The position numbers and the translations under genes are program-made. Below are positions 60,101 to 61,255 of a DNA stretch of 64,000 bases, in pieces. The notes under the pieces are model-generated. The model had not been told where the DNA came from. It did no database searches and saw nothing but the letters and a program-made list of their open reading frames with translations. The stretch's first letter is position 1. Each line of letters begins with the position of its first letter. The stretch is taken from the sequence record OR062527; one strand, written 5' to 3'. This DNA comes from Escherichia phage vB_EcoM_11B_SA_NWU.

Positions 60101-60444
60101 ATGTCCGCTCTGATATTCGTGTCAAAAAGGACCTAGTTAAATTTGAAAATGCTTCTGAGAAGCTTTCAAAAATTAACGGTTACACTTATATGCAGAAGCG
60201 AGGCCTAGATGAAGAAGGTAATCAAAAATGGGAACCTAACGCAGGTTTAATTGCTCAAGAAGTTCAAGCTATTTTGCCAGAATTAGTTGAAGGTGACCCG
60301 GATGGTGAAGCTTTACTTCGTTTGAATTACAACGGTGTAATCGGTTTAAATACAGCTGCAATCAATGAGCATACTGCAGAAATTGCAGAACTTAAGTCAG
60401 AGATTGAAGAGCTTAAAAAATTAGTTAAATCATTGTTAAAATAA
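57133..60444 (+). CDS. 37: Long tail fiber distal subunit gp37, T2-type, with C-terminal intramolecular chaperone-like domain
   Basis: 1103 aa; N-terminus [13 protein letters not shown] as T4 gp37; C-terminus lacks the T4 His-rich tip and carries an SDxRxK motif plus coiled coil. Confidence 0.9.
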
Positions 60445-60448
60445 AATG

Positions 60449-60464
60449 AGGGGCTTCGGCCCCT
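60449..60464 (+). other. Hairpin aggggc-UUCG-gcccct between genes 37 and 38, directly before gene 38 SD
   Basis: 6-bp GC stem; followed by tGGAGG and ATG 60476; no U-run. Confidence 0.45.
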
Positions 60465-60475
60465 TGGAGGTTTAT

Positions 60476-61255
60476 ATGGCAGTAGCAGGACCGTGGGTAG
60501 GATCGTCTGCAGTAATTAATACAGGACAAAATTGGATGGGTGGCGCGGCCCAACGATTAAGAATGGGCATTCCGTTCTGGATGAGTAATATGATAGGTCG
60601 ATCTGTTGAAGTAATTCACACACTTGGAGCGGACCATAACTTCAATGGTCAATGGTTCCGAGATAGATGTTTTGAGGCAGGTAGTGCACCTATAGTGTTT
60701 AATATCACTGGAGATTTAGTATCATATTCTAGAGACGTTCCTTTATTCTTCATGTACGGAGATACACCGAATGAATATGTTCAATTGAATATACACGGCG
60801 TAACGATGTATGGTCGCGGCGGGAATGGTTGGGCTGCTGGAGCGATTGGAGCGTCTGACGGTGGTGTATGTATCCAGAATGATATAGGTGGACGTCTGCG
60901 AATTAATAATGGCGGAGCTATTGCCGGCGGCGGCGGCGGTGGTGGTGGTTATTCACAAGCCAACAACTGGGCGGGAAAATATGTTTGTGGCGGCGGCGGC
61001 GGTCGTCCATTCGGCTTAGGCGGAAATAATGGTGCTCGATGGCCTGGTGGTAATGCTAGTTTGACGTCTCCGGGTGCTGGCGGTAATACTGGTACAGCGT
61101 ATTATGCAGGTGGCGGCGGTGAAGTTGGTCAGCCAGGACAATATGCTAATCCAGGTGCTGGTTATTCAACACCTCCGACAAATCCTGGTGCTGCTGTAGC
61201 AGGATCGGCTCCAACATGGCAAAACGTTGGAGCCGTATACGGTTCAAGAGTATAA
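60476..61255 (+). CDS. 38: Receptor-recognising adhesin gp38, T2-type, with glycine-rich motifs
   Basis: 259 aa from ATG 60476; poly-Gly motifs ([22 protein letters not shown]); much longer than the T4-type gp38 chaperone. Confidence 0.85.
60926..61003. repeat. GGC/GGT trinucleotide tracts encoding the poly-Gly motifs of gp38
   Basis: ggcggcggcggcggtggtggtggt at 60926-60949 and ggcggcggcggcggt at 60989-61003. Confidence 0.6.

Follow-up and report, generated by a model that had tools for sequence, protein, structure and literature searches.

The distal tail-fiber module of Escherichia phage vB_EcoM_11B_SA_NWU: a predicted self-processing gp37 precursor and a PP01-type gp38 adhesin

The gp37-gp38 tip described here is ordinary, well-characterized biology that was already known. 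The architecture of glycine-rich motifs separated by hypervariable segments was described between 1987 and 2011, the structure of the S16 complex appeared in 2018, and 2026 brought the structure, with its OmpC contacts, of a receptor-binding domain 99% identical to the one analyzed here. Processing of T2 gp37 was described in 1986, and C-terminal cleavage is reported for gp37 of both T2 and T6 (Drexler, 1986, as cited in PMC3157838). Autocleavage of S16 gp37 is reported between DLNVS and SDRRIKK, and in the fPS phages gp37 is predicted to be cleaved after DVYIR (PMC7917993). The three tryptophans of S16 gp38 plug into pockets of the gp37 trimer (PMC6851490). For PP01 gp38 the receptor-binding domain was described as a beta-helix with a polyglycine-II sandwich, and the limits of its loops were given (PMC12892980). 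PP01 gp38 binds OmpC of E. coli O157: its residue G208 cross-links to OmpC loop 5, the substitution G208A leaves infectivity unimpaired, and its loop E governs specificity for loops 5 and 7 of O157 OmpC. [quoted passage not shown]

We analyzed a window of 64,000 nucleotides from Escherichia phage vB_EcoM_11B_SA_NWU (record OR062527). We hold with high confidence that the region of genes 37 and 38 encodes the distal, receptor-binding part of the long tail fiber in a T2-architecture Tequatrovirus, of the AR1/PP01/HY01 sub-type, and that it would work by the mechanism set out below; homologies, motifs, fold and loop identity are the observations that carry this assignment. The gene order g34-g35-g36-g37-g38-t is that of the relatives, and over 24 kb the wider DNA matches AugustSocin and NBEco003, the best matches in the phage collection, at about 96%; for the DNA of gene 38 the best matches there reach about 95%. 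Gene 38 sits directly after gene 37, which ends at 60444, and before the holin gene t:

57133..60444, plus strand, gene 37, distal long-tail-fiber subunit precursor (1103 aa, a listed open reading frame)
60476..61255, plus strand, gene 38, monomeric tail-fiber-tip adhesin (259 aa; 61255 is the last base of the stop codon)
61288-61944, holin gene t (Pfam Phage_holin_T, E = 5.9e-117)

Gene 37 is present in its full-length 3312-nt form, like that of AR1, whereas the HY01 form is shortened; nucleotide identity is 97.8% to gene 37 of phage JY01 and 94.5% to that of AR1. Deletions of ~600 bp in gene 37 are reported for PP01, and a search for direct repeats within gene 37 that might explain them gave short imperfect matches only. 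The initial annotation had stated that gp37 shares the N-terminus of T4 gp37, and indeed 53 of the first 60 residues are identical (88%). The homology to T4 gp37 (35%) reaches about aa 640, while the C-terminal parts of the two proteins are unrelated, and a Pfam Gp34_trimer match lies at aa 450-551. The fiber nature of gp37 follows from its homology to gp37 of T4, AR1 and S16.

The last 111 residues of gp37, at its extreme C-terminus, form a domain of another kind:

60109..60441, plus strand, Peptidase_S74 / intramolecular chaperone domain of gp37 (aa 993-1103, 111 aa)
60109..60126, plus strand, Ser993-Asp-Ile-Arg-Val-Lys998, putative Ser/Lys catalytic dyad and cleavage site
60328..60438, plus strand, long C-terminal helix, a coiled-coil-like tail (aa 1066-1102 in the AlphaFold2 model)

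Pfam PF13884 (Peptidase_S74) matches aa 993-1052 with E = 1.2e-12 and 48.4 bits against a cut-off of 22 bits, and the match spans profile positions 1-57 of 58. Its first residue is Ser993, whose codon begins at 60109; the string RSDIRVKKD begins one residue earlier, at aa 992 (nt 60106). The S-D-x-x-x-K dyad pattern is thus present with Ser at the start of the domain and Lys five residues on. Within this motif Ser, Asp and Lys do not vary among aligned distant homologs down to 36% identity, RSD.R.K is found in all 17 of the T2-type gp37 C-termini that were fetched, and the same three residues are kept in S16 gp37 when it is aligned beside the 17 T-even proteins. Against S16 gp37 (6F45_A) the C-terminal region scores E = 1.5e-44, and the junction of VYVR with SDIRVKK falls in register with that of DLNVS with SDRRIKK.

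The domain was also modeled. The homolog search with it gave 12 proteins, and the alignment for structure prediction was consequently shallow; the AlphaFold2 model (119-aa query) is a monomer built on 8 sequences, with a pLDDT of 82.9 overall, 89-97 in a helix at residues 82-118 of the query, and below 50 in residues 1-9, near the cleavage site. In a Foldseek search against the PDB at a probability of at least 0.8, the model matched two chaperone folds, the MyRF ICA 7DC3 (E = 8.6e-6, TM 0.64) and the endosialidase chaperone 3GW6 (0.82-0.93); these two matches alone are meaningful, and the other PDB matches are noise. For the coiled-coil tail that had been proposed, a single long helix is predicted over the final ~37 residues, with a 21-nt (heptad) periodicity in the DNA at 60377-60416. 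Together the Pfam match, the invariant motif, the S16 match, the fold and the cleavage reported for homologs (S16, T2 and T6) favor the earlier proposal that this C-terminus is an auto-cleaved intramolecular chaperone, and we predict that it is released by autoproteolysis between Arg992 and Ser993.

A short stem-loop lies between genes 37 and 38, and the transcript that covers them probably begins upstream of gene 36:

60449..60464, plus strand, stem-loop A-GGGGC-UUCG-GCCCC-U between gene 37 and gene 38 (from the sequence and an RNA fold)
56437..56444, plus strand, T4-type late promoter motif TATAAATA, upstream of gene 36 (exact motif search)

The hairpin is conserved in relatives with compensatory changes in the stem, and it resembles a terminator on the minus strand. 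T4 has one too, and there it persists at the g37/g38 junction although both flanking coding sequences are unrelated to those found here. What is known of T4 late promoters underlies the tie of TATAAATA to transcription; the copy at 56437..56444 is likely to start a g36-g37-g38 late transcript, and the exact motif search found no second TATAAATA between it and gene 38. A sigma-70 promoter scan of 59800-62100 returned fewer matches than shuffled sequence, a result that is uninformative for a T4-type late operon.

The start of gene 38 was placed at ATG 60476, which has a Shine-Dalgarno sequence GGAGG 6 nt upstream (60466-60470). A 269-aa open reading frame from ATG 60446, taken from the program-made list, was rejected in favor of the 259-aa form because most relatives lack that ATG (TAATAAG replaces TAAAATG), annotated relatives begin at the equivalent of 60476, and the Pfam Gp38_N alignment takes in the 259-aa protein from its first residue. 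The features that had been described from the letters are all present in the window: the 111-aa domain of gp37 (given as about 110), the SDxRxK motif, the glycine codon tracts at 60926-61003 and a 259-aa gp38. The protein divides into two parts:

60476..60595, plus strand, gp38 N-terminal attachment domain, aa 1-40 (Pfam Gp38_N; W7, W20, W35)
60596..61252, plus strand, gp38 receptor-binding domain, aa 41-259 (predicted beta-helix and polyglycine-II sandwich)

Both parts have a Pfam profile of their own. Gp38_N (PF21721) is aligned over all of its 40 positions with E = 6.6e-21 and 74.5 bits, and GP38 (PF05268) covers aa 45-259 and profile positions 1-218 of 218 with E = 1.5e-72 and 244.5 bits (cut-off 25 in both cases). 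The glycine content is 23.6% over the whole of gp38 and rises to 32.7% in residues 113-259. In an alignment of 14 adhesins that includes T2 and S16, W7, W20 and W35 are invariant, as are columns that include GRGG.G, GG, G152-G157 and GGGGGRP.G, with variable or indel columns between them. Compared with S16 gp38 (6F45_D) the protein gives E = 2.7e-52, and it is identical to the crystallized receptor-binding domain of PP01 gp38 (9V85) at 221 of 223 positions; by this homology the domain is expected to have the polyglycine-II sandwich structure. A BLASTP comparison with T4 gp38 found no similarity (best E = 17). The two Pfam profiles, the T2 alignment and this negative comparison uphold the view of the initial annotation that gp38 is a T2-type adhesin and not the T4-type chaperone. 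A search of IMG/VR for related loci returned 13, none nearer than the GenBank phages.

The loop limits can be transferred from PP01 gp38, which is numbered identically and aligns without indels to the protein found here:

60830..60847, plus strand, receptor loop A, W119-I124 (the segment swapped in phage YwIITB1)
60956..60985, plus strand, receptor loop B, Q161-V170 (between the two glycine codon tracts; a hypervariable alignment block)
61025..61042, plus strand, receptor loop C, N184-W189 (variable in the adhesin alignment)
61085..61102, plus strand, receptor loop D, N204-Y209 (Ala208 here, Gly208 in PP01)
61148..61168, plus strand, receptor loop E, N225-S231 (same as PP01, including Tyr230)

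Four of the five loops (A, B, C and E) match PP01 exactly, and loop D differs by G208A. Nine residues differ between the two proteins in all, 7 of them in the attachment domain, the others being G208A and I254V. Since the loops are nearly identical to those of PP01, the expected receptor is OmpC of E. coli O157-type strains, and we consider OmpC the likely receptor of this phage. The variable segments had been named as host-range determinants, and this was shown experimentally for the near-identical PP01 protein. Host range depends also on factors outside the gp37-gp38 module.

The proposed mechanism draws on characterized homologs for the cleavage, for the capping of three gp37 chains by one gp38 and for OmpC binding. 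According to it, gp37 would be synthesized as an 1103-aa precursor in which Ser993-Lys1103 acts as a Peptidase_S74 chaperone and nucleates trimerization and folding of the beta-helical fiber. Autoproteolysis after Arg992, mediated by Ser993 and Lys998, would then expose a flat tip ending in DVYVR, on which one gp38 monomer may dock through its N-terminal three-helix domain (W7, W20, W35). The glycine-rich motifs of gp38 would build a rigid polyglycine-II sandwich that displays the five variable loops, and loop E would engage loops 5 and 7 of OmpC.

It could be argued instead that the C-terminal domain of gp37, the model of which ends in a long amphipathic helix, is retained by the virion, where it would form a coiled-coil tip, and that gp38 is a mere assembly factor as in T4. 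Such an arrangement is extremely improbable, because gp38 is unlike T4 gp38 and 99% identical to a structurally characterized receptor-binding domain, the Ser/Lys motif of gp37 is intact and invariant, the S16 and T2/T6 homologs are reported to be cleaved (the latter in PMC3157838), and the docking site of gp38 in the S16 structure is a surface exposed by cleavage. The alternatives that concern variation of the tip center on two runs of glycine codons:

60926..60949, plus strand, Gly151-Gly158 tract, (GGC)4(GGT)4, encoding a predicted long polyglycine-II helix
60989..61003, plus strand, Gly172-Gly176 tract, (GGC)4GGT, within the invariant GGGGGRP motif

The initial annotation took these tracts to be prone to slippage, and as contingency sequences they would gain or lose codons and thereby alter how the loops are presented and which hosts are infected. 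Speaking for this are a perfect (CGG)5 run at 60925-60939, the codons of (GGC)4(GGT)4, which are more homogeneous than in most relatives, and the gp38 of Shigella phage sb1, a near-identical protein apart from its G7 in place of G8. Nevertheless, when tract length and codons were compared in 30 homologs, the second tract was Gly5 in every complete one and the first kept a fixed register of 18 residues from the LRI motif in 29 of the 30. Apparent differences in the length of the first tract turned out to be Gly-to-Ala or Gly-to-Ser substitutions, a true deletion being found in sb1 only. The tracts exist as described, and the longer one changes length in a single homolog of the 30. Wherever close relatives carry other indels, these fall within loop A, loop D or the N-terminal attachment domain. 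In four replicate evolution lines of PP01 nothing but point substitutions became fixed, all of them within or next to loops A, B and D (PMC6027323), and no deletion of a glycine-rich motif was ever recovered in T6 (PMC3157838). Additionally, five trinucleotide units make a short array, and the tracts would be hydrogen-bonded polyglycine-II helices in a lattice, so that their length is expected to be constrained. We regard the slippage proposal as very unlikely. There is about an even chance, on the other hand, that the tracts serve as short conserved patches of DNA homology through which the loops are shuffled or duplicated, whether phages recombine with one another or the gene undergoes unequal exchange internally; this would complement the main explanation and does not compete with it. 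The literature points to recombination between the tracts, and several natural forms agree: the IMG/VR locus L006 codes for a gp38 of 277 aa in which YYSPFSQMRLTFGGGGG is duplicated in tandem, bounded exactly by both tracts, the gp38 of phage YwIITB1 is PP01-like except for its loop A, bov10K1 joins a T2-like N-terminal domain to the receptor-binding domain found here, and by tblastn residues 1-142 of gp38 are common to many phages while the remainder is not. Against it, the duplication is a single case from an uncultivated genome, in which an assembly artifact is possible. A joint reading, in which the hairpin is a functional RNA element and/or a joint for module swaps and the homogeneous tract raises the rate of indels or exchange, seems to us unlikely. 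The roles that the hairpin might have in it are those of an mRNA stabilizer or processing site, a terminator of antisense early transcription, or a means of tuning the gp38:gp37 output (1:3); alternatively, it might be a fixed recombination joint at which tip modules are swapped. For its other half, (GGC)4(GGT)4 may favor indels of glycine codons or unequal exchange between the tracts.

The preferred reading, a gp37 precursor that would process itself and a gp38 adhesin that would cap it, is of use for annotation and host prediction. An adhesin of the PP01/AR1 type can be assigned from sequence alone, hence OmpC of O157-type E. coli as the probable receptor, and for gp37 the annotation can give a self-processing precursor that is predicted to be cleaved after Arg992. 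It also corrects the picture of the glycine codon tracts, which are better understood as polyglycine-II helices under structural constraint, and probably as recombination joints, than as slippage switches.

Among known systems, T4 agrees in gene order and late-promoter layout and has a UUCG hairpin of the same kind at the g37/g38 junction. However, the receptor-binding tip of T4 is part of gp37 itself, which lacks an S74 domain, and T4 gp38 is an unrelated assembly chaperone of 183 aa. The S74 domains of the K1F endosialidase (CIMCD, 3GW6) and of MyRF (ICA, 7DC3) share with gp37 the family PF13884, the S-D-x-x-x-K motif at the start, the fold and the C-terminal position after a trimeric beta-helix. 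In the structural alignment MyRF is about 25% identical and the endosialidase domain about 12%, and the passengers differ: a sialidase in the endosialidase, a transcription factor in MyRF and a T-even tail fiber here. The gp38 of T2, the archetype of the type, is the same kind of adhesin, with glycine-rich motifs and hypervariable segments, encoded between g37 and t, and T2 gp37 has RSDIRxK followed by a C-terminal domain, with C-terminal processing reported. Nevertheless, T2 gp38 is only 49% identical and differs in all loops, and the T2 chaperone domain has 99 aa and lacks the longer C-terminal helix extension seen here. In the S16 gp37(3)-gp38 complex (6F45) we find the same architecture, and S16 gp38 aligns end to end at about 50% identity, with the same glycine-rich motifs and tryptophans and different loops; the residue before the scissile bond is Ser in S16 and Arg here. 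The chaperone domain is 57% identical to that of S16, 32% to that of T2 and 98-99% to the PP01/AR1/HY01 type. The label "T2-type" given to the module by the initial annotation therefore holds for its architecture and not for its sub-type. The nearest relatives are PP01, AR1 and HY01, which share the gene order and the intergenic hairpin and whose gp38 has the same 259 aa without indels, at 96.5%, 96.9% and 98.5% identity, respectively. Position 208 is Arg in AR1, Gly in PP01 and Ala here, and Ile254 of PP01 is Val254 here. In the DNA of gene 38 about 5-7% of nucleotides differ from these relatives, mostly synonymously (31 synonymous against 4 non-synonymous codons relative to HY01). As judged by these comparisons, the module is of T2-type architecture and belongs to the AR1/PP01/S16 sub-type.

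The initial annotation read gp37 and gp38 as a T2-type receptor module; all sequence features that it listed are present in the window, and its reading holds in all points but the idea of slippage in the glycine codons. Both genes belong to a canonical T-even long-tail-fibre cluster (51412-61944, +):

51412-55281, +, g34
55290-56405, +, g35
56468-57124, +, g36 (Pfam Phage_T4_gp36)
57133-60444, +, g37, distal long-tail-fibre subunit precursor, 1103 aa
60476-61255, +, g38, tail-fibre-tip adhesin, 259 aa
61288-61944, +, t, holin (Pfam Phage_holin_T, E 5.9e-117)

An exact search for the T4 late-promoter motif TATAAATA located it at 51370, before g34, and at 56437, before g36. 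Since the exact motif is absent between g36 and g38, g37 and g38 probably share one transcript, as knowledge of T4 would suggest. Upstream of the holin gene, at 61262, the window has the 7/8 variant AATAAATA, whereas the motif is exact there in T4 and fPS-2. Residues 58-126 of the hinge protein gp35 match Pfam ILEI (PF15711, 'interleukin-like EMT inducer' domain; E 4.7e-8, 33.9 bits against a cut-off of 27).

The claimed length of 259 aa for gp38 holds with the ATG at 60476, which follows a GGAGG at 60466-60470; the stop codon ends at base 61255. Annotated relatives start g38 at the equivalent position, and Pfam Gp38_N aligned over 1-40/40 from this start. A mechanical ORF list gave a 269-aa frame from the ATG at 60446, which we rejected as the g38 start because most relatives have TAATAAG in place of TAAAATG; 60446-60448 is a chance in-frame ATG two bases past the g37 stop codon. 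The spacer between that stop codon and the g38 Shine-Dalgarno sequence contains the hairpin GGGGC-UUCG-GCCCC (60449-60464, +), kept in 17 relatives, whose stems differ by compensatory changes (GGGCC/GGCCC, GAGGGC/GCCCTC, GGGGG/CCCCC). T4 also has the hairpin (~7628-7645 of its locus, L001), though both adjoining coding sequences are unrelated. Tuerk et al. (1988) reportedly described C(UUCG)G hairpins between T4 cistrons. Read on the minus strand, the window hairpin looks like an intrinsic terminator and scores as one (hairpin plus T-run).

The N-terminus of gp37 is indeed shared with T4 gp37 (53/60 residues identical); the homology (35%) runs to about residue 640, and the two proteins are unrelated in their C-terminal thirds. 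Residues 450-551 (58480-58785) match Pfam Gp34_trimer (PF21446, E 8.1e-8), a domain common to gp37 and the proximal fibre protein gp34. The window carries the full-length 3312-nt form of g37, like AR1 and JY01, whereas g37 of HY01 measures 2739 nt. In PP01 populations evolved in the laboratory, deletions of ~580-690 bp arose repeatedly between nt 1945 and 2640 of g37 (PMC6027323); the direct repeats inside the window g37 are short and imperfect only.

A C-terminal domain of ~110 aa with an SDxRxK motif had been placed from 60109. The sequence RSDIRVKKD begins at residue 992 (nt 60106), nt 60109 opens the Ser993 codon, and the domain counted from this serine has 111 aa, in agreement with the claim. 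Position 1 of the profile Peptidase_S74, which Pfam describes as 'chaperone of endosialidase', sits on Ser993 (match at 993-1052, 48.4 bits against a cut-off of 22, E 1.2e-12), and gp37 has all the sequence-testable defining features of such domains. The final 192 residues align to an expressed construct of Salmonella phage S16 gp37 (PDB 6F45 chain A, E 1.5e-44), with the cleavage-motif region opposite VSSDRRIKKD. S16 gp37 reportedly ends in an intramolecular chaperone of 113 residues that cuts itself off between the two serines of DLNVS^SDRRIKK, and this cleavage exposes the gp38 docking surface (PMC7917993). For the equivalent DVYIR^SDGRLK of the Yersinia fPS phages, cleavage after Arg is predicted (PMC7917993); the putative site of the window is DVYVR^SDIRVK. 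Cleavage of gp37 has also been reported in T2 and T6 (PMC3157838, citing Drexler 1986). R-S-D-x-R-x-K is invariant in 17/17 T2-type gp37 C-termini compared, while identity in the remainder of the domain falls to 27-32% (T2, RB7, fPS-2); its Ser, Asp and Lys are also invariant in an alignment with metagenomic homologues of identity down to 36%. From these homologues we infer C-terminal processing of gp37.

The AlphaFold2 model of residues 985-1103 (mean pLDDT 82.9) consists of two short helices, a beta-hairpin, a short helix and a long C-terminal helix (residues 1066-1102). The last is the proposed coiled-coil tail. The DNA shows a 21-nt (heptad) periodicity at 60377-60416. Compared with the PDB, the model matched the intramolecular chaperone auto-processing (ICA) domain of MyRF (7DC3, E 8.6e-6, probability 1.0, TM 0.64) and the endosialidase 'Intramolecular Chaperone' (3GW6, probability 0.82-0.93), with only noise beyond these two. 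The suggested resemblance to intramolecular chaperone domains is thus supported by the Peptidase_S74 match, the S16 alignment and the predicted fold.

The whole of gp38 is covered by Pfam GP38 (E 1.5e-72) and Gp38_N (E 6.6e-21), and no similarity to T4 gp38 was found (best E 17), which agrees with the view that it is not a T4-type assembly chaperone. It aligns in full with S16 gp38 (6F45 chain D, E 2.7e-52). We aligned 14 adhesins (the window phage, HY01, PP01, AR1, G157lw, YwIITB1, bov10K1, Ac3, RB7, fPS-2, T2, Sf22, IME341 and S16). W7, W20 and W35, the three docking tryptophans described for S16 gp38 (PMC6851490), are invariant, as are glycine-rich motifs including GRGG.G, GG, G152-G157 and GGGGGRP.G, and all variable and indel-bearing columns lie between the glycine-rich motifs. 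The Pfam GP38 match and this alignment, which includes T2, bear out the description of a T2-type adhesin with variable segments between poly-Gly motifs, and every sequence-testable defining feature of gp38 adhesins is present. In tblastn, hundreds of phages share residues 1-142 (65-90% identity) and not the C-terminal specificity part, which is the familiar mosaic.

The GGC tracts at 60926-61003 had been called slippage-prone. The tracts exist and flank receptor loop B:

60926-60949, +, first Gly-codon tract, (GGC)4(GGT)4
60989-61003, +, second Gly-codon tract, (GGC)4GGT

Most relatives mix GGC, GGT and GGA codons here; the tracts of the window are more uniform. Yet slippage found no support among 30 homologues (18 from GenBank, including the window, and 12 from IMG/VR), only one of which has a true length change. 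The second tract is Gly5 inside GGGGGRP in all of them; the first ends in a fixed register, 18 residues past the LRI motif, and its apparent range of 5 to 9 Gly reflects end substitutions (Ala or Ser for Gly). The exception is Shigella phage sb1 (L023:701-1477), with G7 instead of G8, one codon shorter; it also has G113V in the first glycine-rich motif, and both may be real variants or sequencing errors. The other indels of close relatives fall in loop A (YwIITB1), loop D (G157lw, Sf23, bov10K1) and the N-terminal attachment domain (bov10K1). Four replicate laboratory-evolved PP01 populations fixed point substitutions only (A123E/V, Y159H, Q161H, N163H, T207I; PMC6027323), and in T6 no deletion of glycine-rich motif 2, 3 or 4 was ever recovered (PMC3157838). 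Because the tracts form hydrogen-bonded polyglycine-II helices in a lattice (PMC6851490, PMC12892980), changes of their length should be costly. The conserved glycine-rich motifs are instead described as preferred sites of recombinational exchange that shuffles the hypervariable segments (PMC3157838). One IMG/VR homologue of 277 aa (IMGVR_UViG_2974787500_000001, L006:1501-2331) carries hypervariable segment 2 with the following Gly5 motif (YYSPFSQMRLTFGGGGG) twice in tandem, bounded by the two tracts. This duplication looks like an unequal exchange between them and fits the recombination role of the motifs; it may also be an assembly artefact.

PP01 gp38 combines a beta-helix with a polyglycine-II sandwich and has five receptor loops (A W119-I124, B Q161-V170, C N184-W189, D N204-Y209, E N225-S231; PMC12892980), and this numbering applies directly to the window protein because both have 259 aa without indels. 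Residues 37-259 are identical at 221/223 positions to the sfGFP-fused receptor-binding domain of PP01 gp38 (PDB 9V85 chain A), with only G208A (loop D; codon 208 at 61097-61099) and I254V differing. In PP01, cross-links join Gly208 to OmpC loop 5 and Tyr230 of loop E to OmpC loop 7, specificity is governed by loop E, and G208A is reported not to impair infectivity. Since the window protein shares loops A, B, C and E unchanged with PP01 gp38, which contacts OmpC, the receptor is most likely OmpC of O157-type E. coli. Within the clade, position 208 is Gly (PP01, HY01), Ala (window), Arg (AR1) or deleted (G157lw, Sf23, bov10K1). This residue, cross-linked in PP01 to OmpC loop 5, is a hot spot of natural polymorphism.

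The window is a Tequatrovirus, ~96% identical to several phage genomes over 24 kb; g37 is 97.8% identical to that of JY01 and 94.5% to that of AR1, and g38 DNA is 93-95% identical to HY01, EC121, AR1 and PP01. The differences of g38 from its closest relatives (L015, L016, L019-L021) are mostly synonymous (31 synonymous and 4 non-synonymous codons against HY01), which indicates purifying selection on the adhesin type within the clade. Nothing here departs from published knowledge, so we rate the module as already known. The label 'T2-type' stands for the architecture; the module itself belongs to the AR1/PP01/HY01 group and is, by identity, closer to S16 (gp38 50%, chaperone domain 57%) than to T2 (49% and 32%).
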